Positions 1 to 12,214 of a stretch of DNA of 12,214 nt are shown piece by piece. The position numbers were made by a program, and so were the translations under genes. Where the stretch lies: UHGV virus genome UHGV-1821312, one strand, 5' to 3'. The notes under the pieces were generated by a model. It saw nothing but the letters and a program-made list of their open reading frames with translations, searched no databases and had not been told where the DNA came from. The DNA is from a virus. Each line of letters starts with the position of its first letter. Within the stretch, counting starts at the first letter, position 1.

Positions 1-46
1 AGATCTGCGCATGTCTCGTGGGCTCGGAGATGTGTATAAGAGACAG
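1..46. other. Non-genomic library adapter at the 5' end (Nextera/Tn5-type read-2 adapter plus 19-nt mosaic end)
   Basis: Positions 13..27 are GTCTCGTGGGCTCGG and 28..46 are AGATGTGTATAAGAGACAG, the Tn5 mosaic-end sequence. The exact reverse complement is at 12175..12208. Phage sequence starts at 47. Confidence 0.9.
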
Positions 47-361
47 GTCCTGCACAAAACGGGTAAATGCCTGCTGGCTGAGAAGGCGATGTGGAATATA
101 GGTACTGCTGATAATGTCACGCTTAACACTGATCGGGGAGCTGTGGTGCACGGCGGCGCGGAAGGTACGCGCCAGTCCGTCAAAGCTGACGGGCGGCTCA
201 TACCAGCGATCCATCTGCACGCATTCCACATAGTCCAGCAGCTCGCGGCGGTCCAGTACAGGAATGGGATCACCAAAGCTGAAAGCCTCAGCCGTTGGGC
301 TGTTGCCTGGTTTTGTGTTGTGATCAACTGTTACCTGCTTGGTGTTTTTACGTTTGCTCAT
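47..361 (-). CDS. Q: Portal (capsid portal vertex) protein, N-terminal 105 codons only; the rest is lost at the adapter junction
   Basis: My translation of the minus strand from ATG (revcomp of 359..361) gives MSKRKNTKQVTVDHNTKPGNSPTAEAFSFGDPIPVLDRRELLDYVECVQMDRWYEPPVSFDGLARTFRAAVHHSSPISVKRDIISSTYIPHRLLSQQAFTRFVQD with no stop. This resembles the P2 gpQ portal N-terminus as I recall it and sits where Q belongs. GAGGAG lies 8 nt upstream of the ATG. Not in the supplied ORF track because it has no stop in the window. Confidence 0.7.
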
Positions 362-1065
362 TCTGCCAGCTCCTCGTTTGCGAGAGGCCATTCGCACATA
401 AACAGCATTTTCCAGTCCTCTGCTGATAATTCTTTTTTCATATCGTTCAGCCAGTTATCAGTAAACAACATTGCTCCTGATGCTGCTGCGTCATCAGCGG
501 TAAACACCATGCTGGTTACACTGTTGTTTTTGCTTAACTTTTTAAATTCCTGCCATGCCTCCGGGTTAGGGCTGGGAGTGGTGTAGTAGGTGGCGTGGTG
601 GCGTGCGTGCATAGAAATCCCTTTAGCCAGGGCAATCATATTTCTCGGTGATTCAGACCAGGCATACTCTGACACGTAGACATTTCCACTGAGTGCGGTG
701 GCGTGGCACTTGAGGTCGAAAAAATAAATGACCGCACCATTCGGAAGCTCCAGATGACTTTTGCCTGATTTTATTTTTCCAGTGTGCGTATAAGCTGCGG
801 CCTGGCTTAAGAATGCTGACACATAGGCTTTGATTGCCTGCGCAGATGCTGTGCTGCAGCAGAGGAAAATCTGGTTACGCCCGGTATGCAGTGCATCGTT
901 CAGGGCTTCATAGGAAAAAAAGAAATCCGCGCCTGCCTGGCGCATTTTTGTGAGTACACGGTTTCTACTCTTTGGGCCAGTGTTCCACTCATACTGGTAA
1001 GCAAAGAAAGAGCTATCCACCGGAAGTCCCGCGATAGTCATGAGGTTAGTTGGGATTGGGGGCAT
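358..1065 (-). CDS. Stand-alone terminase-ATPase-domain paralog (235 aa from ATG at 1065), function unknown
   Basis: ORF-track protein 358..1068 aligns by eye to residues ~143-378 of the adjacent terminase (FAYQYEW / FNYQRHW; TGRNQIFL identical; LPNGA; GNVYVSEYAW / GNLYLDEYFW; TTPS / STPS; MLFMCEW / LLMCEF), roughly 40% identity. It lacks the terminase N-terminal ~140 aa and the C-terminal ~210 aa. GGAG lies 8 nt upstream of the ATG. I prefer the ATG at 1063..1065 to the track's TTG at 1066..1068. Confidence 0.8.
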   Translation of the reverse strand: MPPIPTNLMTIAGLPVDSSFFAYQYEWNTGPKSRNRVLTKMRQAGADFFFSYEALNDALHTGRNQIFLCCSTASAQAIKAYVSAFLSQAAAYTHTGKIKSGKSHLELPNGAVIYFFDLKCHATALSGNVYVSEYAWSESPRNMIALAKGISMHARHHATYYTTPSPNPEAWQEFKKLSKNNSVTSMVFTADDAAASGAMLFTDNWLNDMKKELSAEDWKMLFMCEWPLANEELAE

Positions 1066-2831
1066 CAAAAAATCTCCACAATATTGCTTGTATTGGCGGA
1101 CTCGCCCTGCAGCGGTTCATTAAACAGTGCGTGCATCGTTGCCCAGGCCAGATCGGCGTGGCTGGCTTCTTCGCTGCGGCTGGCTTCATAGGTCGGGCGG
1201 TTGCCGCTGGCGGTGGTGGCGCGACGGATTGCCATAAATGACTGCGCAATGTCGGTGTGCCCGGCGTCAAACTCCAGACGGCGGTGGCTGATAATGTCGT
1301 AGGCCTTGAGTACCAGGGCGTTTTTAACATTGGGGTTGTAGACAAACTCCCGGACGGCAGGAAAGAACGCTTTCACGTTCTCATAAACCCCGTGACCGAC
1401 GCCGGTCGAGTCGATGCCGATATAGGTCACGTTGTACTGTTCGGTCAATTTTTTGATGGCGTCCGCCTGGGCGCGGAAGTCCATCCCGCGCCACTGGTGA
1501 CGCTCAAGAATGCGGAACTTACCGCCCGGCACGGCTGGCGGTGCCACCACCACGCATCCGGCGCTGTCGCCGTTCTGCGTACCTTTTGCCGGGTCATAAC
1601 CGATCCACACTTCGCGCCAGCCAAACGGGCGAAGGGCCAGTGCATGAAAGTCGGTCCAGACTTCCCAGCTGTCCACCATGCACGCCTGCAGCTCGCTGAG
1701 CGGGAACACGGACGCGAGATCGTCCACAAACTCGCACATCAGCAGGTTCTGGTATTCGCCCGGGCTGTACTCCATGCGCAACTGATCGAGGTCGAAAAGG
1801 TTACATCCGCCGCGCACTGCATCTTCCACGGTGACTATCTGGCGGTATTGCCCGTCTGCACACAGCAGGCCGGGGGCCAGATTGTTGTGTGACAGGTCAA
1901 TGTCCACCTTGTCGGCTTTGTTGCGGCCACGGTTGAACAGCGCACCGGACCAGAACGGATAAGCACTGTGGGTAAGGCTGGATGGCGTGGAAAAATAGGT
2001 TTGTCGCCATTTTTTGTGAATAGCCATACCGGAAGCCACTTTGCGCAGCTCCTGGAATTTCGGTATCCAGAAATATTCATCCAGATACAGGTTGCCGTGG
2101 TAACTCTGGGCCGTGCGGGCATTGGTGCCGAGGAAATACAGTGTGGCCCCGTTGGGAAGCACCATCGGATCGCCTTTCAGCTCCACCTCCACTTCTTTGG
2201 CGAAGTCGATGATGTACTGTTTAAAGACGTGGGCCTGTGCCTTACTGGCGGAAAGGAAAATCTGGTTACGTCCGGTCAGAAGGGCGTCAATCAGGGCTTC
2301 ACGGGCAAAGTAAAAGGTCGCGCCGATCTGGCGTGACTTCAGCAGGTTGCGGATGCGGTTGGTTTTTCCGGCTTCCCACCAGTGGCGCTGGTAGTTGAAC
2401 ATAGAGGAATGGAAGATTTCTTCCAGTTTCTCAATCTGTTCATCGGTGAAAACATTCTTTTCCGGCTGACGGCGCGGGCCTTTGTTGCGGTTGGCGACGT
2501 TAGGGTTTAAGTCGGCTTCGTTGCCGCCATTGTTAAACTTGCCGATCCGCGCGTGGCGCTCCGACTGGCGCGCCAGCAGGTCAATCTCTTTGAAATCTTT
2601 CCCTTCTTTGTGCTCCTTCATAATGAGCTGGCAGTAGCGTGCGGCGGTGGTGAGCTGCATCTGATCCAGCGGCCCATAGTCACCCCACTTGTCGCGTTTT
2701 TTCCAGCTGTGAACGGTTGCAACTTTCTCGCCCAGCATTTCAGCAATGCGGGCTACGCGGTATCCCTGAAAGTACAGCAGCATGGCCTGCCGACGGGGAT
2801 CGAGATCTGCGGGTGTCAGTGTGGTGTTCAT
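1065..2831 (-). CDS. P: Terminase ATPase (large) subunit, P2 gpP family, 588 aa
   Basis: Size and sequence are typical of P2-type terminase ATPase subunits. N-terminal region RRQAMLLYFQGYRVARIAEMLGEKVATVHSWKKRDKW, then a lambda-gpA-like deviant P-loop KSRQIGAT, a Walker-B-like LYLDE and a C-terminal domain. Divergent from the O-N-M-L operon as in P2. Confidence 0.92.
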   Translation of the reverse strand: MNTTLTPADLDPRRQAMLLYFQGYRVARIAEMLGEKVATVHSWKKRDKWGDYGPLDQMQLTTAARYCQLIMKEHKEGKDFKEIDLLARQSERHARIGKFNNGGNEADLNPNVANRNKGPRRQPEKNVFTDEQIEKLEEIFHSSMFNYQRHWWEAGKTNRIRNLLKSRQIGATFYFAREALIDALLTGRNQIFLSASKAQAHVFKQYIIDFAKEVEVELKGDPMVLPNGATLYFLGTNARTAQSYHGNLYLDEYFWIPKFQELRKVASGMAIHKKWRQTYFSTPSSLTHSAYPFWSGALFNRGRNKADKVDIDLSHNNLAPGLLCADGQYRQIVTVEDAVRGGCNLFDLDQLRMEYSPGEYQNLLMCEFVDDLASVFPLSELQACMVDSWEVWTDFHALALRPFGWREVWIGYDPAKGTQNGDSAGCVVVAPPAVPGGKFRILERHQWRGMDFRAQADAIKKLTEQYNVTYIGIDSTGVGHGVYENVKAFFPAVREFVYNPNVKNALVLKAYDIISHRRLEFDAGHTDIAQSFMAIRRATTASGNRPTYEASRSEEASHADLAWATMHALFNEPLQGESANTSNIVEIF

Positions 2832-2877
2832 GGCACAAACCTACAGCCTTGAATGAAGGCTTTCCCCGCCTGCGGTT

Positions 2878-2895
2878 TGTGTGGTTGTCGGTACA
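2878..2895. promoter_or_regulatory. TGT-N12-ACA element in the divergent P/O late-promoter region (candidate Ogr/Delta-type activator site)
   Basis: TGT at 2878..2880 and ACA at 2893..2895 are separated by 12 nt, inside the 142-bp P-O intergenic region. The centre lies ~88 bp upstream of the O ATG and ~55 bp from the P ATG. P2-family late promoters are known to carry this half-site dyad centred near -55. Confidence 0.4.
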
Positions 2896-2973
2896 AATAC
2901 CGCGCATTGTTTCACTACCCCCATCACCGCAACCATAAGGCTCCAGTAAGTTTTTTTTAACGGAGCACGGCTC

Positions 2974-3807
2974 ATGACAGTGAAAGCAAAGCGTTTTCGC
3001 ATCGGGGTGGAAGGTGCCACCACCGACGGACGCGAAATCCAGCGTGAATGGCTGGAACAGATGGCAGCCAGCTACAACCCGGCGGTGTATACCGCGCTGA
3101 TTAACCTTGAGCACATCAAGTCTTATCTGCCGGACAGCACCTTTAACCGCTACGGCAAGGTGACGGCGCTGTTTGCTGAGGAAATCACGGAAGGTCCGCT
3201 GGCAGGCAAGATGGCGCTGTATGCCGACGTTGAGCCAACGGAGTCCCTGGTGGAACTGGTGAAAAAAGGCCAGAAATTATTCACCTCTATGGAAGTCAGC
3301 CCGAAGTTCGCTGATACGGGCAAAGCCTACCTGGTCGGCCTGGCTGCCACTGATGACCCTGCCAGTCTGGGCACTGAAATGCTGACATTCAGCGCCAGTG
3401 CAGCCCATAACCCGCTGGCAAACCGCAAGCAGAATCCTGCCAATCTCTTTACCGCTGCAGAGGAAACGGTGATCGAACTGGAGGAAGTCCAGGACGACAA
3501 ACCGTCCCTGTTTTCCCGCGTCACGGCGCTGTTCACCAAAAAAGAGCAGTCCGATGACGCCCGGTTCTCTGATGTGCATAAGGCCGTGGAACTGGTCGCC
3601 ACTGAGCAGCAAAACCTGAGCGCGCGAACCGAAAAATCTCTGTCTGAGCAGGAAGAACGCCTGTCTGAACTGGAGTCTGCTCTGCAGAAGCAGCAAACCG
3701 CCTTTAATGAACTGGTGAATAAGCTGAGTCATGAAGACAGCCGCCAGGACTACCGCCAGCGTGCAACAGGCGGTAACGCCCCCGCTGACACTCTGACCAA
3801 TTGCTGA
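2974..3807 (+). CDS. O: Capsid scaffolding protein, P2 gpO family, 277 aa
   Basis: Motifs FRIGVEG, INLEH, YLVGLAATDDPASLGTE and the C-terminal TNC match gpO as I recall it. GGAG lies 8 nt upstream of the ATG. Confidence 0.9.
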   Translation: MTVKAKRFRIGVEGATTDGREIQREWLEQMAASYNPAVYTALINLEHIKSYLPDSTFNRYGKVTALFAEEITEGPLAGKMALYADVEPTESLVELVKKGQKLFTSMEVSPKFADTGKAYLVGLAATDDPASLGTEMLTFSASAAHNPLANRKQNPANLFTAAEETVIELEEVQDDKPSLFSRVTALFTKKEQSDDARFSDVHKAVELVATEQQNLSARTEKSLSEQEERLSELESALQKQQTAFNELVNKLSHEDSRQDYRQRATGGNAPADTLTNC

Positions 3808-3823
3808 TGGAGCACAAAACCCG

Positions 3824-4882
3824 ATGAAGAAGAATACCCGCTTTGCTTTTAACGCTTACCTGCAGCAGCTGGCGCGTCTGAACGGTGTGGCAGTTGAAGA
3901 ACTGTCCAGCAAGTTCACTGTAGAGCCGTCTGTACAGCAGACGCTGGAAGACCAGATCCAGCAGTCCGCCGCTTTCCTGACGCTGATTAACGTCACGCCA
4001 GTGACTGAGCAGTCTGGTCAGTTGCTGGGGCTGGGTGTTGGCAGCACCATTGCCGGAACCACTGACACCACCGCGAAAGAGCGTGAGCCTGTCGATCCGA
4101 CGCTGATGGTTGATGCGGAATATAAATGCGAGCAGACCAACTTTGACACGGTGCTGACCTACGCGAAGCTGGACCTGTGGGCGAAGTTTCAGGATTTCCA
4201 AGTGCGCATCCGTGACGCCATCGTGAAACGTCAGGCACTGGACCGCATCATGATCGGCTTTAACGGCGTGAAGCGTGCGAAAACCTCCAACCGTAGTGAA
4301 AACCCGCTGCTGCAGGATGTTAACAAAGGCTGGCTGCAGAAAATCCGTGAGGATGCACCGGATCACGTCATGGGCAGCACCACCACGGGCGGTGAAACCA
4401 CTCCGGGCGCGGTGAAAGTCGGGAAAGGTGGCGAATATGCCAACCTGGACGCCGTAGTGATGGATGCCGTCAATGAGCTTATCGATGTGGTCTACCAGGA
4501 CGATGACGATCTGGTGGTGATTTGCGGTCGTGAACTGCTGTCTGACAAGTATTTCCCGCTGGTCAACAAAGAGCAGGAAAACAGTGAAAAACTGGCTGCC
4601 GATATGATCATCAGTCAGAAACGCATGGGTGGCCTGCAGGCCGTGCGTGCGCCGTTCTTCCCGCCGAATGCGCTGCTGATCACCCGTCTGGATAACCTGT
4701 CCATCTACTGGCAGGAAGACACCCGCCGCCGTTCAGTTATCGACAACCCGAAACGTGACCGGATTGAAAATTTTGAATCCGTTAACGAAGCCTATGTGGT
4801 TGAGGACTACCGCTGCGCCGCACTGGTGGAAAACATCCAGATTGGCGATTTCAGCGCCGCTGCAGCCGAAACCGGAGCGTAA
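3824..4882 (+). CDS. N: Major capsid protein, P2 gpN family, 352 aa
   Basis: TRFAFNAYL, FTVEPSVQQTL, LDLWAKFQDFQVRIRDAIVKRQ, GFNGVKRA, VVICGRELLSDKYFPLVNKEQENSEKLAADMIISQKR all match gpN closely. Position after O. Confidence 0.92.
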   Translation: MKKNTRFAFNAYLQQLARLNGVAVEELSSKFTVEPSVQQTLEDQIQQSAAFLTLINVTPVTEQSGQLLGLGVGSTIAGTTDTTAKEREPVDPTLMVDAEYKCEQTNFDTVLTYAKLDLWAKFQDFQVRIRDAIVKRQALDRIMIGFNGVKRAKTSNRSENPLLQDVNKGWLQKIREDAPDHVMGSTTTGGETTPGAVKVGKGGEYANLDAVVMDAVNELIDVVYQDDDDLVVICGRELLSDKYFPLVNKEQENSEKLAADMIISQKRMGGLQAVRAPFFPPNALLITRLDNLSIYWQEDTRRRSVIDNPKRDRIENFESVNEAYVVEDYRCAALVENIQIGDFSAAAAETGA

Positions 4883-4885
4883 CCC

Positions 4886-5536
4886 ATGAGCCTGAGTCCC
4901 GCACGGCAGCATCGCCTGCGCGTTCAGGCTGAACAGGCCGCCCGCGAGGGCGGCAGCGTTCGCCACGCGTCGGGCTATGACCTGATGCTGCTGCAACTGG
5001 CGGAAGACCGCCGCCGTCTCAAGAGCGTTCAGTCCACGGTGAAAAAAGCGGAAATCAAGGTGGAGCTGCTGCCGAAATATGCCGCCTGGGCGGAGGGCGT
5101 CCTGGCTGCCGGAGGCGCTCAACAGGATGACGTGCTGATGTACGTGATGCTGTGGCGCATTGATGCCGGAGATTATGCCGGGGCGCTGGAGATCGGGCGT
5201 CATGCCCTGCGTCATGGCTGGGTGATGCCGCTGGGTAACCGCAACGTGCAGACCGTGCTGGCAGAGGAAATGGCAGACGCGGCGCAGAGCGCAATGCTTG
5301 CCGCCACCGGCTTTGATGCCGATCTGTTGCTGCAGACGCTGGAGCTGACAGACGGTCTGGATATGCCGGACCAGTCACGGGCGCGTCTGCATAAAGCGAT
5401 TGGCGCTGTCCTGAGTGAAAGCAACCCGGCTTCCGCCCTTAATCATCTCAACCATGCGTTACAGCTCGATCCCCGCTGTGGCGTGAAAAAAGACAAACAG
5501 CAGCTGGAGCGCAGACTGCGCAATGACAGCCGCTGA
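4886..5536 (+). CDS. M: Terminase endonuclease (small) subunit, P2 gpM family, 216 aa
   Basis: Position directly after N, with GGAG 8 nt upstream. Size and sequence character fit gpM. Confidence 0.85.
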   Translation: MSLSPARQHRLRVQAEQAAREGGSVRHASGYDLMLLQLAEDRRRLKSVQSTVKKAEIKVELLPKYAAWAEGVLAAGGAQQDDVLMYVMLWRIDAGDYAGALEIGRHALRHGWVMPLGNRNVQTVLAEEMADAAQSAMLAATGFDADLLLQTLELTDGLDMPDQSRARLHKAIGAVLSESNPASALNHLNHALQLDPRCGVKKDKQQLERRLRNDSR

Positions 5537-5631
5537 CAGAACGTGCCCCCGCGCACGGGCGGCACGGGGTGGCGAAAGGCACTGCCACATCAAAACCCCG
5601 TCCACCGCCCTCTATTTCAGGAGAAAGCAGC

Positions 5632-6096
5632 ATGAAGTTTGTTGCGCCAGAACAGGCACCGGAACAGGCGGAAATCATCAGGAATACGCCGTTCTGGCCT
5701 GATGTGGACCTGTCGGAGTTTCGCAGCGTGATGCGCACTGACGGCACGGTGACGCAGCCGCGTTTAAAGCAGGTTGCGCTGTCGGCAATTTCGGAGGTCA
5801 ACGCAGAGCTGTATGAGTTTCGCAGACGCCAGCAGATGCTGGGGTATGCCTCGCTGGCAGAGGTTCCGGCGGAACAGCTGGACGGCAAAAGTGAGCGCAT
5901 TCAGCACTATTTCAACGCGGTTTACTGCTGGGCACGCGCCATGCTCAACGAACGTTACCAGGACTATGACGCCACGGCGTCCGGTGTGAAGCGGGGCGAG
6001 GAACTGGCGGAAGCAAGCGGTGATTTGTGGCGTGACGCCCGCTGGGCCATCAGCCGGGTGCAGGATGCGCCGCACTGCACAGTGGAGCTTATCTGA
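5632..6096 (+). CDS. L: Head completion/stabilization protein, P2 gpL family, 154 aa
   Basis: Position between M and X. ATG at 5632 is preceded by AGGAG at the right spacing; the track's upstream start at 5569 is a GTG with no good RBS. Stop overlaps the X start (TGATG). Confidence 0.8.
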   Translation: MKFVAPEQAPEQAEIIRNTPFWPDVDLSEFRSVMRTDGTVTQPRLKQVALSAISEVNAELYEFRRRQQMLGYASLAEVPAEQLDGKSERIQHYFNAVYCWARAMLNERYQDYDATASGVKRGEELAEASGDLWRDARWAISRVQDAPHCTVELI

Positions 6097-6299
6097 TGAA
6101 AGTGCGTGCGCATCAGTATGACACGGTGGACGCGCTTTGCTGGCGTCATTACGGGCGCACGCAGGGTGTCACGGAGCAGGTACTGAAGGCAAATCCGGGG
6201 CTTGCCGAATACGGCCCCTTTTTACCTCACGGGCTGCAGGTGGAGCTGCCGGACATTCCGACCACCACCACTGTGCAGACCGTCCAGCTATGGGACTGA
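6096..6299 (+). CDS. X: Tail protein X, P2 gpX family, 67 aa
   Basis: 67-aa protein at the canonical position after L; size matches P2 gpX. Start overlaps the L stop. Confidence 0.85.
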   Translation: MKVRAHQYDTVDALCWRHYGRTQGVTEQVLKANPGLAEYGPFLPHGLQVELPDIPTTTTVQTVQLWD

Positions 6300-6302
6300 A
6301 TT

Positions 6303-6518
6303 ATGACGCTTGAGCGAATCAGCGCCTTTATCACGTATTGCATCGCCGTCGTGCTGGCCTGGCTGGGCGATTTGTCCATCAAGGATGCCTCAACGCTGGG
6401 CGGCCTGATGATTGGTGTGCTGATGCTGGCTATCAACTGGTACTACAAACACAAAGCCTACCAGCTTCTGCGCGACGGGCAGATCTCGCGGGAGGACTAT
6501 GAATCCATCAATCGTTAA
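6303..6518 (+). CDS. Holin, 71 aa, two predicted transmembrane segments (class II / pinholin-like)
   Basis: Two hydrophobic stretches, ISAFITYCIAVVLAWLG and LGGLMIGVLMLAINWYY, followed by a charged C-terminus. Lies immediately upstream of the lysozyme and overlaps it by 20 nt. Shorter than the P2 Y holin as I remember it. Confidence 0.7.
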   Translation: MTLERISAFITYCIAVVLAWLGDLSIKDASTLGGLMIGVLMLAINWYYKHKAYQLLRDGQISREDYESINR

Positions 6519-7011
6519 ACGCTGCCTTGTCGGGACCGTGCTGGCTATTGCTGCCACGCTGCCGGGTTTTCAGCAGCTTCACACCTCCGTGGAGGGGCTG
6601 AAACTGATTGCCGATTACGAAGGCTGTCGTCTGCAGCCGTATCAGTGCAGCGCGGGTGTCTGGACCGACGGCATTGGTAATACATCGGGCGTCATTCCCG
6701 GCAAAACCATTACGGAACGACAGGCAGCGGAAGGGCTGATCTCCAACGTGCTGCGTGTGGAGCGGGCGCTGGAAAGGTGTGTGAAGCAACAGCCGCCGCA
6801 GAAGGTGTATGACGCGGTGGTGTCGTTTGCCTTCAACGTGGGAACGGGCAATGCCTGCAGTTCCACACTGGTGAAATTGCTCAATCAGCGGCGCTGGGCG
6901 GATGCGTGCCGACAGTTGCCGCGCTGGGTGTATGTAAAAGGTGTGTTTAATCAGGGGCTGGATAACCGCCGAGCGCGGGAGATGGCCTGGTGCTTACAGG
7001 GAGCAAACTGA
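6499..7011 (+). CDS. Endolysin, phage lysozyme (T4-lysozyme / GH24-like) with an N-terminal hydrophobic SAR-like segment, 170 aa
   Basis: VEGLKLIADYEGCRLQPY...WTDGIGNT resembles the E...D...T catalytic region of T4-type lysozymes. The N-terminus VKRCLVGTVLAIAATLPGF is a weakly hydrophobic Gly/Ala-rich stretch typical of signal-arrest-release domains. Confidence 0.8.
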   Translation: MNPSIVKRCLVGTVLAIAATLPGFQQLHTSVEGLKLIADYEGCRLQPYQCSAGVWTDGIGNTSGVIPGKTITERQAAEGLISNVLRVERALERCVKQQPPQKVYDAVVSFAFNVGTGNACSSTLVKLLNQRRWADACRQLPRWVYVKGVFNQGLDNRRAREMAWCLQGAN

Positions 7012-7012
7012 A

Positions 7013-7390
7013 ATGAAAAAGAAATTAATCAGCGGGCTGTTTCTGATGTTATGGATGGGGCTGTTGATCGCAACAATGATGTATCCGCAGGGGATTTTTC
7101 CGGTACTGGCAGCATCCGGCGTTTGGGTAGCCTGTCTGCTGACATGGGCAGTAATTCCGGTAGCACTGGCTGCGTTAATTAAGAACGGCCCGCTCTGGCA
7201 GGAGTTGAGGGCATCTTTGCTGAAGAGCATTACCCGAAAAGAAAACGTATTTATCAGCTGGGTGATGCGATTGCTGATTATCGTAAGTCTCGCCTGGACG
7301 GGGTGGGCCATTACCCTGGTCTTTTATCTGCTGACCGTTATTGCCTTCTGGATCACACGTAACCAGATGGCGCAACAGGTAGCCGCATGA
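7013..7390 (+). CDS. lysA: LysA-like polytopic membrane protein (lysis accessory), 125 aa from ATG at 7013
   Basis: Several hydrophobic helices (LISGLFLMLWMGLLIATMMY, VWVACLLTWAVIPVALAALI, LLIIVSLAWTGWAITLVFYLLTVIAFWI). Sits between endolysin and spanins as P2 lysA does. Its stop overlaps the lysB start (ATGA). Confidence 0.6.
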   Translation: MKKKLISGLFLMLWMGLLIATMMYPQGIFPVLAASGVWVACLLTWAVIPVALAALIKNGPLWQELRASLLKSITRKENVFISWVMRLLIIVSLAWTGWAITLVFYLLTVIAFWITRNQMAQQVAA

Positions 7391-7815
7391 ACCGGTTGCT
7401 GCTGGTTGTGCTGGCGTTATTACTGGCGACGCTGGGCTGGCAGAGGTGGCGGCTGGCTGATGCCAGCCAGACCATCAGCACGCAGGCAGACGAACTGCAG
7501 AGCAAAAGCCAGGCGCTGGCAAAGAGCAACAGCCAGCTTATCAGCCTGTCCATTCTGACTGAAACCAATAACCGAGAGCAGGCGCGGCTCTATGCCGAAG
7601 CAGAACAGACCATTGCACTGCTGAGACAACGACAACGCCGGATTGAGGAACTGAAACGTGAGAACGAGGATTTACGCCGCTGGGCTGATACTCCTTTGCC
7701 TGCTGACATTATCCGGCTGCGGAAACGTCCGGCATTTACCGGAGGTGCAGCTTACCGTCAGTGGTTGTCCGCGGGTAACGCCGTGTCGACTGGATCAGGC
7801 AGCGCCGCGCACTAA
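7387..7815 (+). CDS. lysB: i-spanin (LysB / Rz-like), 142 aa
   Basis: N-terminal membrane anchor LLLVVLALLLATLGW followed by a coiled-coil-like, charge-rich periplasmic domain. Contains the nested lysC reading frame. Confidence 0.75.
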   Translation: MNRLLLVVLALLLATLGWQRWRLADASQTISTQADELQSKSQALAKSNSQLISLSILTETNNREQARLYAEAEQTIALLRQRQRRIEELKRENEDLRRWADTPLPADIIRLRKRPAFTGGAAYRQWLSAGNAVSTGSGSAAH

Positions 7816-7948
7816 CGGTGATCTGAACGCGTTGCTGGATGAAACGGAGGCCGCCTGGGCGGTCTGTGCAGACAAAGTGGACATGATTATTGCATGTCAG
7901 GAGCGAAACAGTGAACAAACCACAATCCCTGCGCCACGCCCTCAATAA
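7658..7948 (+). CDS. lysC: o-spanin outer-membrane lipoprotein (LysC / Rz1-like), 96 aa, begins inside lysB in another frame
   Basis: GTG start at 7658 with GAGGA 8 nt upstream. Signal peptide plus lipobox MRTRIYAAGLILLCLLTLSG-C. Starts within lysB and runs past its end into the start of R, as described for P2 lysC. Confidence 0.7.
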   Translation: MRTRIYAAGLILLCLLTLSGCGNVRHLPEVQLTVSGCPRVTPCRLDQAAPRTNGDLNALLDETEAAWAVCADKVDMIIACQERNSEQTTIPAPRPQ

Positions 7949-8342
7949 AGCAGTGCCTTATGTCCGTAATAACCCGGACAAACTGCATCTGTTTGTGGAT
8001 AACGGTTCGCTGGTTGCCACGGGGGCCAACTCCATGTCATGGGAGTACCGCTACACCCTGAACGTGGTGATTGAGGATTTCAGCGGCGACCAGAATCTGC
8101 TGATGGCCCCGGTTTTGCTGTGGCTGCGGGATAACCAGCCCGATGCCATCAATAACCCGGCGTTACGGGAAAAGCTATTCACCTTTGAGGTGGATATTCT
8201 GCGCAACGATGTCTGTGATATCAGCCTTAACCTGCAACTGACGGAGCGTGTGCTGGTCAGCACTGACGGCAGTGTGTCGAACGTTGAAGCGGTAGCGGAA
8301 CCCGATGAACCTGAAGAAATGTGGACGGTGAAACGTGGCTGA
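7911..8342 (+). CDS. R: Tail completion protein, P2 gpR family
   Basis: Position and sequence fit gpR. I prefer GTG at 7911 (AGGAG 7 nt upstream) to the track's TTG start at 7890. Stop overlaps the S start. Confidence 0.8.
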   Translation: MNKPQSLRHALNKAVPYVRNNPDKLHLFVDNGSLVATGANSMSWEYRYTLNVVIEDFSGDQNLLMAPVLLWLRDNQPDAINNPALREKLFTFEVDILRNDVCDISLNLQLTERVLVSTDGSVSNVEAVAEPDEPEEMWTVKRG

Positions 8343-8781
8343 ATTGCAGAAGGTGGACGACTGGCTGAGTGCCTTGCTGGCGAATCTGGAGCCAGCTGCA
8401 AGAAGCCGCATGATGCGTCAGCTGGCGCAGGAACTGCGCCGGACACAGCAGCAGAATATCAGGATGCAGCGCAACCCTGACGGCAGCAGCTATGAACCGC
8501 GACGGGTAACAGCACGCAGTAAAAAAGGCCGCATCAAACGTCAGATGTTTGCGAAGCTGTGCACCACAAAATACCTGAAAACTGCCGCCAGCGCCGACTC
8601 TGCCAGCGTGCAGTTTGAAGGCAAGGTGCAGCGCATTGCCCGCGTTCATCACTACGGCCTGCGTGATCGCGTCAGTCGCAAAGGACCGGAGGTCCGTTAC
8701 GCAGAGCGCCGCCTGCTGGGTGTAAATGATGATGTTGAGGCAATGACCCGCGACATGATTCTGCAATGGCTGGCGGGGTGA
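8335..8781 (+). CDS. S: Tail completion / virion morphogenesis protein, P2 gpS family, 148 aa
   Basis: GTG start overlapping the end of R. Position and sequence character fit gpS. Confidence 0.8.
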   Translation: MAELQKVDDWLSALLANLEPAARSRMMRQLAQELRRTQQQNIRMQRNPDGSSYEPRRVTARSKKGRIKRQMFAKLCTTKYLKTAASADSASVQFEGKVQRIARVHHYGLRDRVSRKGPEVRYAERRLLGVNDDVEAMTRDMILQWLAG

Positions 8782-8784
8782 TCT

Positions 8785-8804
8785 TTGTATCAGCACTGAT
8801 ACAA
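8785..8804. promoter_or_regulatory. 20-bp near-perfect palindrome TTGTATCAG-CA-CTGATACAA containing TGT-N12-ACA (candidate late-promoter activator site for the V operon)
   Basis: Two 9-bp perfect inverted arms around a 2-bp centre, located in the 68-bp S-V intergenic region. Centre is ~55 bp upstream of the V ATG. Matches the dyad described for P2 late promoters. Confidence 0.5.
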
Positions 8805-8849
8805 GTTGCAGCACTGCCGCCTTTCTTCCCGTGATGGCAACCTTTCCCT

Positions 8850-9428
8850 ATGAACGCACAATTAACCGAAATCATGCGCCTTATCACCAACCTGATCCGC
8901 ACTGGTGTAGTCACCGAAGTGGACCGGGAAAACTGGCTTTGCCGGGTGAAAACGGGCGACCTTGAAACCAACTGGATTAACTGGCTGACGCTGCGCGCGG
9001 GTAATGCCCGCACATGGTGGAAACCATCGGAAGGTGAGCAGGTGGTGCTGCTGAGTCTGGGCGGCAATCTGGAGACTGCCTTTGCGCTGCCCGCTGTCTA
9101 TTCGAATCAGTTCGCACCACCGTCGACGTCGGCGGACGCCTGCGTGACAGAACATCCTGACGGTGGCTGGTTTGAATACGAACCCGCCACCGGGCGCTGG
9201 TATGTCAGGGGCATCAAATCCATGGTCATTGAGGCTGCCAACAACATCACCCTGAAAACCAGTGAGTTTGTGCTGGAGGCTGACCGCACGCGTATTAACA
9301 GCGAAGTGGTGATCAATGGTGGCGTTACCCAGGGCGGCGGAGCGATGAGTTCTAACGGGATCGTGGTTGATGCGCATCAGCATACTGGCGTTCTGAAAGG
9401 CGGTGACACAACCGGAGGCCCGGTATGA
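8850..9428 (+). CDS. V: Baseplate assembly / tail spike protein, P2 gpV family, 192 aa
   Basis: NLIRTGVVTEVD, CRVKTGDLETNWINWLTLRAGNARTWWKPSEGEQVVLLSLGGNLETAFALPAVYS and the C-terminal HQHTG...GGDTTGGP align well with gpV as I recall it. Confidence 0.88.
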   Translation: MNAQLTEIMRLITNLIRTGVVTEVDRENWLCRVKTGDLETNWINWLTLRAGNARTWWKPSEGEQVVLLSLGGNLETAFALPAVYSNQFAPPSTSADACVTEHPDGGWFEYEPATGRWYVRGIKSMVIEAANNITLKTSEFVLEADRTRINSEVVINGGVTQGGGAMSSNGIVVDAHQHTGVLKGGDTTGGPV

Positions 9429-9784
9429 CGCTTTATAGCGGGATGAACAATACCAGCGGCAAAGCCATTACTGATATTGACCATCTGCGCCAGTCGGTGC
9501 GGGACATTCTGCTGACGCCGCAGGGTAGCCGCATTGCTCGCCGTGAATATGGTTCCCTGCTGTCGGCACTGATAGACCAGCCACAAAATCCGGCGTTACG
9601 CCTGCAGGTCATGTCGGCAGTGTATGTGGCGCTGAGTCGCTGGGAGCCACGGCTGACGCTGGATTCCATCACCATCAACAGCCATTTTGACGGTTCAATG
9701 GTGGTGGAGCTGAGCGGGCGGCGTAATAACGGTGTGCCTGTTTCCCTTTCCGTATCAACAGGAGCAGAGAATGGCAGTGATTGA
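9425..9784 (+). CDS. W: Baseplate wedge protein, P2 gpW (gp25-like) family, 119 aa
   Basis: Start overlaps the V stop (ATGA). Size and position are canonical for gpW. Confidence 0.85.
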   Translation: MTLYSGMNNTSGKAITDIDHLRQSVRDILLTPQGSRIARREYGSLLSALIDQPQNPALRLQVMSAVYVALSRWEPRLTLDSITINSHFDGSMVVELSGRRNNGVPVSLSVSTGAENGSD

Positions 9785-10679
9785 CCTTTCGCAGTTACCT
9801 GCGCCGCAGATTGTGGATGTGCCGGACTTTGAGACGCTGCTTGCCGAACGAAAGGCAGAATTTGTGGCGCTTCATCCGAAAGATGAGCAGGAAGCAGTGA
9901 TCCGCACGCTGGAACTGGAATCTGAACCCGTCACCAAATTGCTGCAGGAGAACGCTTACCGTGAGTTGCTTCTGCGCCAGCGCATTAACGAAGCCGCGCA
10001 GGCTGTGATGGTGGCTTACGCGATGGGCGGCGATCTTGACCAGATCGCTGCCAACTACAACGTGAAACGCCTGACGGTGACGCCTGCTGATAATGACGCT
10101 GTGCCGCCCGTTGCAGCAGTGATGGAAAGCGATGAAGCGTTACGCCTGCGTGTGCCTGCAGCTTTTGAAGGGCTTTCAGTTGCGGGGCCAACTGCAGCTT
10201 ATGAATTTCATGCCCGAAGCGCCGACGGTCGGGTGGCGGATGCCAGTGCAACCAGCCCGGCACCTGCAGAGGTGGTGCTGACTGTCCTTAGCCGCGAAGG
10301 CGATGGAACTGCAGAAAAAGACCTGCTGGACGTGGTGGAAAAAGCTCTGAACAGTGAGAACGTCCGCCCGGTGGCTGACCGTCTTACGGTTCGCAGCGCA
10401 GAAATCATCCCGTATCGCGTGGAAGCCACCATTTTTCTCTATCCGGGACCGGAAGCAGAGCCGGTAATGGCAGCGGCAAAAGCCAGCCTGCAGAAGTACA
10501 TCGCCAGTCAGACGCGTCTTGGTCGGGATATTCGCCGTAGCGCCATCTTTGCCGCCCTGCATGTTGAGGGTGTGCAGCGTGTGGAGCTGGCTTCTCCTCT
10601 GGCGGATGTGGTCCTGAACAAAACGCAGGCGGCATCATGTACGCAGTGGAGCGTAACCAACGGAGGAACGGATGAATAG
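9771..10679 (+). CDS. J: Baseplate protein, P2 gpJ family, 302 aa
   Basis: ATG at 9771 with AGGAG upstream gives 302 aa, the length I recall for P2 gpJ. The track's start at 9732 lies inside W and is unlikely. Confidence 0.88.
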   Translation: MAVIDLSQLPAPQIVDVPDFETLLAERKAEFVALHPKDEQEAVIRTLELESEPVTKLLQENAYRELLLRQRINEAAQAVMVAYAMGGDLDQIAANYNVKRLTVTPADNDAVPPVAAVMESDEALRLRVPAAFEGLSVAGPTAAYEFHARSADGRVADASATSPAPAEVVLTVLSREGDGTAEKDLLDVVEKALNSENVRPVADRLTVRSAEIIPYRVEATIFLYPGPEAEPVMAAAKASLQKYIASQTRLGRDIRRSAIFAALHVEGVQRVELASPLADVVLNKTQAASCTQWSVTNGGTDE

Positions 10680-11277
10680 TCTGCTGCCACCGGGTTCAAC
10701 ACCACTGGAGCGCCGACTGGCGCAAACCTGCAGCGGGATTTCTGATCTGCAGGTGCCGCTGCGTGACTTGTGGAATCCGGCAACCTGTCCGGTCAGTTTC
10801 CTGCCTTATCTCGCCTGGGCGTTCTCTGTGGATCGCTGGGACGAGGGCTGGACAGAAAGCGTCAAACGCCAGGTAGTGAAGGATGCTTTTTATATTCATC
10901 AGCATAAAGGAACCACCAGTGCCGTGCGGCGGGTGGTGGAACCGTTCGGATTCCTGATCCGCATTATTGAGTGGTGGCAGACCGGAGAGGCTCCGGGCAC
11001 GTTTCGCCTGGATATCGGCGTGCAGGACCAGGGCATCACTGAAGATACCTATCTGGAACTTGAGCGACTGATAAGCGATGCCAAACCATGTAGCCGCCAC
11101 ATGATCGGCATGTCCATCAATCTGCAGACCAGCGGCCCGCATTGGGTGGGAGCCGCCAGCTATCTTGGCGAAGAAATCACGATCTATCCGTATATCAACG
11201 AAACAATTATTTCTGGCGGCACCGCGCATGAAGGCGGGGCGGTCCATGTTATTGACACAATGAGAGTGAATCCATGA
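10672..11277 (+). CDS. I: Baseplate / tail protein, P2 gpI family, 201 aa
   Basis: GGAGG 5 nt upstream of the ATG. Overlaps the J stop and the H start. Canonical position. Confidence 0.85.
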   Translation: MNSLLPPGSTPLERRLAQTCSGISDLQVPLRDLWNPATCPVSFLPYLAWAFSVDRWDEGWTESVKRQVVKDAFYIHQHKGTTSAVRRVVEPFGFLIRIIEWWQTGEAPGTFRLDIGVQDQGITEDTYLELERLISDAKPCSRHMIGMSINLQTSGPHWVGAASYLGEEITIYPYINETIISGGTAHEGGAVHVIDTMRVNP

Positions 11278-12174
11278 GCACAAAATTTTATACCCTGCTG
11301 ACGGATATTGGCGCGGCGAAACTTGCCAGCGCCGCCGCGCTCGGTGTGCCGCTAAAAATTACCCATATGGCGGTGGGCGATGGTGGCGGAACATTGCCGA
11401 CGCCGGACGCAAAGCAGAGTGCACTGGTAAATGAGAAACGTCGGGCTGCGCTGAATATGCTCTATATCGACCCACAGAACAGCAGCCAGATTATTGCTGA
11501 ACAGGTGATCCCTGAAAACGAGGGCGGTTGGTGGATACGTGAAGTGGGCCTGTTTGATGAGTCCGGGGCATTGATTGCCGTGGGAAACTGCCCGGAAAGC
11601 TATAAGCCGCAACTGGCTGAAGGTAGCGGGCGCACTCAGACCGTGCGCATGGTGCTGATTACCAGCAGCACGGACAATATCACCCTGAAAATCGACCCTG
11701 CTGTAGTGCTGGCAACCCGCAAGTATGTGGATGACAAGGCACTGGAGCTGAAGGTGTACGCGGATGATCAGATGGCAAAACATCTTGCCGCACCGGACCC
11801 GCATTCACAGTATGCACCCAAAGAAAGTCCGACGTTTACCGGGACACCCAAAGCGCCAACGCCAGCGGCGGGGAATAATACCACGCAGCTTGCGACCACC
11901 GCGTTTGTTCAGGCGGCACTCACGGCCCTTATTAATGATGCGCCAGCCACGCTGGACACGCTGAAAGAAATAGCCGCAGCCATTAACAATGATCCGAATT
12001 TCAGTACCACCATTAACAATGCGCTGGCACAAAAAGCGCCGCTGTCGAGTCCGGCACTCACCGGAACGCCAACAGCACCTACTGCGGCACAGTCGGTCAA
12101 CAATACACAGATTGCCACTACAGCTTTTGTGAAATCGGCGATTGCAGCAATGGTGGGGTCTGCACCTGCGGCAC
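11274..12174 (+). CDS. H: Tail fiber protein, P2 gpH family, N-terminal ~300 codons; 3' end cut off by the adapter
   Basis: My translation from ATG at 11274 (overlapping the I stop) gives MSTKFYTLLTDIGAAKLASAAALGVPLKITHMAVGDGGG...ESYKPQLAEGSGRTQTVRMVLI..., the conserved N-terminal domain of P2-type tail fibers. The frame runs without a stop into the adapter at 12175. Confidence 0.85.
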
Positions 12175-12214
12175 CTGTCTCTTATACACATCTCCGAGCC
12201 CACGAGACATGCGC
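12175..12214. other. Non-genomic library adapter at the 3' end (reverse complement of the 5' adapter)
   Basis: CTGTCTCTTATACACATCT at 12175..12193, then CCGAGCCCACGAGAC. Confidence 0.9.

Follow-up and report, generated by a model that had tools for sequence, protein, structure and literature searches.

What is a second, partial terminase gene doing between the large-terminase gene P and the portal gene Q of a P2-like phage? The question is raised by UHGV virus genome UHGV-1821312, of which we analysed a stretch of 12,214 nucleotides (nt), hereafter the window, whose genes are those of the late region in a P2-like prophage (Peduoviridae). Its minus strand carries gpP (2831..1065), then the extra gene, here called X (1065..358), and then gpQ (from 361), while gpO, gpN and gpM together with lysis and tail genes occupy the plus strand. 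The original prediction held that X is translationally coupled to both of its neighbours, expressed in fixed ratio with them, and integrated into the operon rather than passively inserted. The explanation that we favour overall, at a probability of roughly 55%, is that P, X and Q form one late unit and that X is an accessory of the packaging machinery.

The large terminase gpP (1065..2831, minus strand, 588 amino acids) carries the Pfam domains Terminase_5, Terminase_6N (ATPase) and Terminase_6C (nuclease), with E = 3e-27, 3e-64 and 1.7e-49, and X (358..1065, minus strand, 235 amino acids) is a stand-alone paralogue of its ATPase domain, with Terminase_6N only, as judged by Pfam, PHROG and an AlphaFold2 (AF2) model. 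Re-reading the minus strand, we found the predicted junction coordinates right to the base. At 1063..1067 the gpP stop (TGA, 1067..1065) and the X start (ATG, 1065..1063) form TGATG with one base in common, the A at 1065. GGAG at 1074..1077 (minus strand), which comes from the conserved penultimate Glu codon of gpP (final codons GTG GAG ATT TTT TGA), is a putative Shine-Dalgarno (SD) sequence for X, with an 8-nt spacer (1073..1066) to the ATG and a duplex of −6.4 kcal/mol with the 16S 3′ end. At the other end of the gene, the gpQ start (ATG, 361..359) and the X stop (TGA, 360..358) overlap by 4 nt as ATGA (358..361, minus strand), and GAGGAG at 370..375 (minus strand), within the last X codons, is the candidate SD of gpQ (8-nt spacer, 369..362; duplex −8.1 kcal/mol). 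The table of open reading frames (ORFs) begins X at an in-frame TTG (358..1068); since all related loci share the ATG at 1065 as start, we take X to be 235 amino acids long.

These junctions were compared across 19 P-X-Q loci taken from phage records, E. coli chromosomes, other Enterobacterales genomes and metagenomes, in which the identity of X to that of the window goes down to ~36% and whose hosts include Escherichia, Salmonella, Citrobacter, Klebsiella, Pantoea, Yersinia, Serratia and Buttiauxella. X was always found along with a full-length gpP, and in the 19 loci it is flanked by the gpP and portal genes. Stop and start codons overlap at both X junctions in every locus (19/19): the P stop/X start junction takes the form T(G/A)ATG in 17 and ATGA in 2, and the X stop/Q start junction is ATGA in 14, TAATG in 3, GTGA in 1 and an 8-nt overlap in 1. 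GGAG precedes the X start by 8–11 nt in every one of the 19, and purine-rich SD-like sequences stand at the GAGGAG position before Q in the others.

UGAUG and AUGA overlaps, such as those of trpB-trpA and trpE-trpD in E. coli, are classical translationally coupled junctions. In sequence, the overlaps of P, X and Q are of the same types, with an SD inside the upstream ORF at 8 nt, but no occluding mRNA structure accompanies them. The original prediction read the exactness of the junctions as a sign of expression in fixed ratio and of integration into the operon, a reading that has to be tempered, as overlaps are the norm in this prophage: in the closest complete prophage (E. coli A38, locus L006), as annotated in RefSeq, 1- or 4-nt overlaps are seen in 7 of the 27 other same-strand neighbour pairs, and overlaps of any length in 11/27. 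Taken as single events, the P/X and X/Q overlaps are no more than chance would give; it is their conservation across loci that exceeds chance.

This background gives some room to the possibility, in our view an unlikely one, that the overlaps merely reflect genome compaction, with X and Q translated independently from their own SDs and the P:X:Q ratio set by initiation strength. Both SDs are of normal strength (−6.4 kcal/mol for X and −8.1 kcal/mol for Q, with other late genes ranging from −3.9 to −10.3) and optimally spaced, and about a quarter of the other neighbour pairs show 1- or 4-nt overlaps. Furthermore, we found no significant mRNA structure that would hide either SD and sequester the X or Q start, the junction folds being no more stable than shuffled sequences (z = +1.19 and −0.72). 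An SD-occluding structure was thus discarded as a sign of coupling, and a small hairpin over GAGGAG is absent from the other loci. Against compaction as a sufficient account, the overlap has been kept in 19/19 loci despite diverging surroundings, which suggests selection on the form of the junction, and amber mutations in P2 gene P are reported to be polar on Q.

Part of this architecture predates X. Phage Cartapus, whose gpP is 99.5% identical to that of the window, has no X, and its P and Q are joined by the identical sequence, GTGGAGATTTTTTGATG, which reproduces TGATG and GGAG base for base. Because an X-less phage with nearly the same gpP has the same junction, X can be placed at the ancestral P-Q junction: judged by this comparison, it occupies the TGATG and supplies a new GAGGAG-N8-ATGA junction for Q. 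The chain from P to Q would accordingly run through one overlap in X-less phages and through two when X is present. TGATG and GGAG were correctly recognized by the original prediction but were not made for X; the X-less P2-type relatives have the same TGATG plus GGAG junction after gpP. As a separate observation, the Cartapus P/Q junction (L005 570-670) is predicted to fold at −29.3 kcal/mol (z = −2.9 relative to shuffled sequences) with GGAG paired, and the junctions of the window have no corresponding fold.

In the mechanism that we propose, ribosomes finishing P would re-initiate on X and those finishing X would re-initiate on Q, so that portal synthesis would stay tied to upstream translation, as in phages without X. 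A different link between P and X was considered at the same site, namely a −1 ribosomal slip on the T-run A TTT TTT GA (1073..1065, minus strand) that would make a gpP-X fusion. Six T's followed by a stop codon are a slippery context and the −1 frame (TTG ATG CCC...) is indeed the X frame. However, the T6 run is present in just 3/19 loci, others reading ATT TTC TGA, TTC AAC TAA and so on, and the run recurs in X-less Cartapus, in which slippage would produce a P-Q fusion. A programmed frameshift was rejected on these grounds, T6 being absent from 16/19 loci, and we regard the fusion as highly improbable.

As for transcription, P2 genes P and Q (large terminase, then portal) are transcribed from the Ogr-dependent promoter P_P. 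Intergenic TGT-N12-ACA dyads, which we take to be the type of site bound by the P2 late activator Ogr and the motif of P2 late promoters, occur at two places in the window: between P and O (2878..2895) and before gene V (8786..8803). The former presumably controls the divergent late promoters that would drive P-X-Q, and the pattern search of the window returned no dyad upstream of X or Q. A sigma-70 scan likewise returned no site near either X junction; its one weak sigma-70-like hit (2020..1992) falls within gpP, ~930 nt before X begins, and was dismissed as an internal promoter. A terminator-like element does occur inside X at 944..928 (minus strand), with a 5-bp GC stem (GCGCC-AGGCA-GGCGC, free energy −9.8 kcal/mol) followed by GGA and a T-run. 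It is encoded by the Walker A codons R-Q-A-G-A-D-F-F-F, and only the E. coli-type alleles of the window and L006 have it, stem or T-run being broken in the other loci; we rejected it as an internal terminator and regard it as a coding by-product that is not conserved.

Genes, order, strand and the dyad upstream of P are those of the P2 late operon, except for an extra gene of 705 nt inserted precisely at the point where P ends and Q would otherwise begin. Taken together, it is likely that P, X and Q are expressed from one late mRNA running from the P/O promoter region through Q, and that at least some of the ribosomes translating X and Q arrive directly from the gene before. That X is integrated in the P-Q late operon, as had been predicted, is supported by the junctions kept in 19/19 loci, the maintained length, purifying selection (see below), the lack of sigma-70-like sites near either junction and the presence, among these genes, of a late-promoter dyad only before P. 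Since X has no promoter of its own that we could detect and lies inside the late operon, its expression in a lysogen is unlikely.

What X encodes is a terminase ATPase domain stripped of its partners. X residues 18-226 align to gpP 142-368, the ATPase domain only, at 32% identity (E = 3e-32); Terminase_6N (PF03237) is matched over residues 42-226 with 61.8 bits against a gathering cut-off of 22 (E = 9.5e-17), and PHROG 3746 is matched with E = 1.4e-86. Pfam finds neither the Terminase_6C nuclease domain, X ending where the gpP ATPase domain ends, nor the N-terminal gpP-type Terminase_5/helix-turn-helix domain, X beginning at the equivalent of gpP residue ~125. Most of the segment that matches gpP 296-330 is also missing. 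NCBIfam has no family for X, and sequence searches with the X profile and with gpP gave no real matches to solved structures. The AF2 model (pLDDT 79.9, pTM 0.82, first 17 residues disordered) was matched by Foldseek to the large terminase (TerL) ATPase domains of P74-26, T4, D6E, HK97 and Sf6 at E ~1e-7 and TM 0.6–0.69, and the top 29 matches in the PDB are all TerL ATPase domains. Without Terminase_5 domain and nuclease, X would not be a terminase by itself: we infer that it cannot recognize or cut DNA alone.

The active site of this domain is conserved and altered at the same time. Across 28 aligned members of the X family 29 positions are invariant, and those also common to gpP include Gln24 (YQ motif), Lys40, Arg42 and Gly45 of the P-loop, the catalytic Glu133 and Ser165 of the TPS motif. 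The P-loop codons K40-M-R-Q-A-G-A-D47 (925..948, minus strand), identified from alignments, specify a deviant Walker A whose Lys comes first, in a loop between strand 35-40 and helix 46-61 of the model; its last residue is Asp47 (codon 925..927) in X (KMRQAGAD) where gpP has Thr (KSRQIGAT). In the Walker B segment V129-Y-V-S132-E133 (667..681, minus strand; alignments, with strand 128-132 in the model) the Asp of gpP (LYLDE) is replaced by Ser132 (VYVSE; codon 670..672) and the catalytic Glu is kept. The canonical metal site, made of Walker A Ser/Thr and Walker B Asp, is thus absent from X. Replacement also affects several arginines that are invariant in gpP, R263 and R330 among them, which are candidates for a trans-acting arginine finger. 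Compared with full-length large terminases, X has the ATPase fold, the Q motif, the P-loop Lys/Arg, the catalytic Glu and the C-motif, and differs in lacking the nuclease and Terminase_5, in its shortened 296-330 region and in its replaced Walker B Asp.

The two substitutions go together. Using a motif-regex extraction that dropped 21 sequences, let through a few probable mis-hits and covers related sequences, so that the counts do not represent independent events, we found Walker A Asp in 80/108 stand-alone relatives, accompanied by Walker B Asp in none of the 80 (the Walker B residue being Ser in 69, Pro in 4, Ala in 2, Gly in 2, Leu in 1 and Thr in 1), in contrast to Thr plus Asp in 50/53 full-length gpP relatives. 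Such a pattern suggests a relocated carboxylate at the metal site, and we infer that the site has been re-arranged, not abandoned. The X of phage Midge keeps the ancestral Thr plus Asp.

Loss of the Walker B Asp could otherwise be read as a symptom of decay, X being a functionless, slowly decaying remnant of a partial gpP duplication. A dN/dS (ratio of nonsynonymous to synonymous substitution rates) of 0.48 in the closest pair, for which changes are few, points the same way, as does the copy in Escherichia phage 500465-1, broken into three frames. Over longer distances dN/dS of X is 0.13–0.22 (0.01–0.06 for gpP), its length is held at 225–254 amino acids down to ~36% identity, the 29 invariant columns include catalytic ones, and the family comprises at least 30 clusters at 50% identity; the portal is also split in 500465-1, pointing to sequencing errors. 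A decaying remnant is, in our judgement, very unlikely. A recent duplication of the resident gpP was discarded too, as the gpP ATPase domains all cluster together and X falls on long branches outside that cluster in trees that are rough (neighbour joining, midpoint rooting).

The 500465-1 record deserves a comment of its own. In NC_049342.1 (L001 2003-2533 and 776-1814) X is split over three frames and the portal is annotated as two coding sequences; both splits are probably indel errors in the deposited sequence and not real pseudogenes. X is further present in the records of phages MLG42, vB_YenM_201.16, vB_YenM_56.17 and Midge, and in these as in 500465-1 it is labelled 'terminase large subunit' or 'hypothetical protein'. 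Automatic annotation goes no further than terminase or 'terminase large subunit domain-containing protein'. Searching the literature for additional or truncated terminase genes of P2-like phages gave nothing relevant and no description of X, and the paper on vB_YenM_201.16 does not comment on the two 'terminase large subunit' genes of that phage.

What would the product do? As an accessory, X would fold as a complete TerL ATPase domain, would still bind nucleotide and would modulate packaging, without being indispensable to it, by attaching to the gpP ring, the portal or both. This functional half of our explanation, nucleotide binding together with association with the packaging machinery, is the tentative one, and we put it well below an even chance.

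Several observations weigh against a packaging accessory made in step with P and Q. On the side of expression, the junction sequences fit de novo initiation as well as re-initiation by terminating ribosomes and would not imply a fixed ratio: given ordinary SDs and no occluding structure, one is as possible as the other, and the X and Q starts are each probably usable de novo too. The hairpin at 944..928 may also act as a weak attenuator in the allele of the window. On the side of the gene, X evolves 4–10 times faster than gpP, or under more relaxed constraint, and has a GC content of 48.7% with a third-position value (GC3) of 0.53, where the neighbours gpP, gpQ, gpO and gpN have 55–57% GC and GC3 of 0.62–0.70. 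Its tree is incongruent with that of gpP, locus L011 having a gpP 86% identical to that of the window and an X only 39% identical. Phages with a 99.5% identical gpP lack X, and of 1232 E. coli genomes with a P2-like match just 20 (~1.6%) carry it; given both facts, X is not needed for packaging. On the side of the family, one member, P0064 (L024 3685-4395), a single metagenomic sequence, has lost both the P-loop Lys (ASRQIGCD) and the catalytic Glu (VPN), and a sister subfamily, described below, sits at the A-proximal edge of a defence hotspot, a position that would fit a conflict role better than a motor role.

From these comparisons X appears as an old gene, mobile among P2-like phages, dispensable and maintained. 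The contrast drawn by the original prediction between integration and passive insertion consequently holds in one respect and fails in another: selection, constant length and the 19/19 junctions indicate that X is not decaying, yet it is foreign in composition (GC3 0.53 against 0.70) and dispensable. Acquired and operon-integrated are both true of it.

The same traits feed a competing account of X, which we consider somewhat less probable than nucleotide binding and association with the packaging machinery. X would be a terminase ATPase-domain mimic employed in conflict, either as an anti-defence protein against sensors of the TerL ATPase (Avs1-3, Upx) or as an inhibitor of the packaging of competitors or satellites, and a gene beside P would deliver the mimic along with the real target. 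The patchy, accessory distribution, fast evolution, foreign composition and phylogeny incongruent with gpP are all in line with it, the first two fitting it better than they fit a motor role, and the changes in X sit in active-site features that Avs sensors reportedly read. P0064, despite having lost its catalytic Lys and Glu, keeps its place between P and Q. T4 vs.8, a stand-alone TerL-ATPase-like protein, engages EcAvs2, and the study describing this (PMC13601566) proposes a possible anti-defence role for such proteins. Then again, vs.8 activates Avs2 rather than blocking it, so that a mimic could harm the phage; a decoy would have no obvious need of the nucleotide-binding residues, which most members strictly conserve; and no PADLOC defence model matched X at E ≤ 0.1, though that library holds few anti-defence proteins.

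Phage proteins that resemble the TerL ATPase domain, namely T4 vs.8 and Ksap1/Ksap2, can trigger Avs2 (PMC13601566). X and vs.8 are alike in being a stand-alone TerL-ATPase-like fold that exists beyond the real terminase and is limited to particular phage lineages (among the matches listed, that is, the top matches and the genus counts, tblastn with X returned only P2-type phages). The Walker motifs are kept in vs.8. X differs from it as an apparently independent lineage from P2-type gpP, with a lambda-like deviant P-loop, a re-arranged metal site and a location between P and Q or after gene A; the likeness to vs.8 is one of kind only. In a similar manner, X can be set beside the accessory genes of the P2 A-Q hotspot, which include old, tin and many defence systems (PMC9122126): it is patchy, of atypical GC and exchanged between related phages, but it lies on the far side of Q, inside an essential late operon and with no promoter of its own detected.

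A profile search of 1.84 billion representative proteins gave 334 matches at the threshold of E ≤ 1e-10, including the above-mentioned clusters (at least 30 at 50% identity) of ATPase-domain-only proteins with 220–285 amino acids. Some of the proteins, P0080 and P0096 among them, have canonical Walker motifs, and the P0080 gene overlaps each of its two neighbours, the C-terminal end of gpP and the portal gene, by 1 nt. P0064, still full length, occupies the P-Q position as well and overlaps its neighbours by 1 and 4 nt. For the sister subfamily (P0122, P0136 and P0144) the location is different: its genes immediately follow the replication gene A in the early operon, and in those phages P and Q are joined directly. 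Its loci are L020 6001-6750, L021 6001-6738, L022 6001-6696 and L023 756-1451, and in L022 and L023 the gene stands beside one for a KAP nucleoside triphosphatase (NTPase). P0118 (L019 507-1202), of the same subfamily, comes from a 1.8-kb contig in which small ORFs and a transcriptional-regulator gene can be seen, with gpP, portal and gene A out of view. Because this subfamily sits in the early operon after gene A, members of the family do not in general require a stoichiometric link to P and Q. The A-Q region is the P2 defence hotspot (PMC9122126), and a location by the hotspot, in places next to a KAP NTPase gene, again speaks for the mimic. Extending the argument, we may speculate that P2-like phages carry a large family of terminase-ATPase mimics whose re-arranged site would bind ATP and engage terminase partners without packaging, as decoys or inhibitors of Avs1-3, Upx, rival phages or satellites; this general version is the more doubtful one, and we hold it to be improbable as it stands.

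The window itself is a complete contig assembled from untrimmed reads. Its ends, 1..46 and 12175..12214, are Nextera transposase adapter (CTGTCTCTTATACACATCT then CCGAGCCCACGAGAC), with CTGTCTCTTATACACATCT at 28..46 on the minus strand and again at 12175..12193 on the plus strand; 1..46 is thus non-phage read-through and the true phage DNA is 47..12174. The contig end being adapter, the portal gene is truncated at position 47: what remains of gpQ (47..361, minus strand) are the N-terminal 105 codons, which match PHROG portal families (E = 2.9e-53) and are 91% identical to the L006 portal. The final 15 residues of the translated 'portal' (from L106, ...LSLIHISEPTRHAQI) come from the adapter.

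The coupling architecture found here is textbook and half inherited, and it matters only as evidence that X is a working part of the late operon. The X product is the more useful lead: a conserved, nuclease-less terminase ATPase domain, dispensable and with an unusual swap at its metal site. Stand-alone terminase-ATPase paralogues were already noted in T4-like phages, and proteins of this kind, such as T4 vs.8, have recently been recognized as a question in terminase-sensing immunity; the P2-like family appears to be an independent and larger one, with an unusual active-site change and two genomic positions. If X is indeed a mimic, the overlapping junctions would deliver it in step with its target gpP. 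The P2 family is in any case tractable: inducible E. coli lysogens are available, phages with and without X but with near-identical terminases occur naturally, and the P4 satellite depends on the same terminase.

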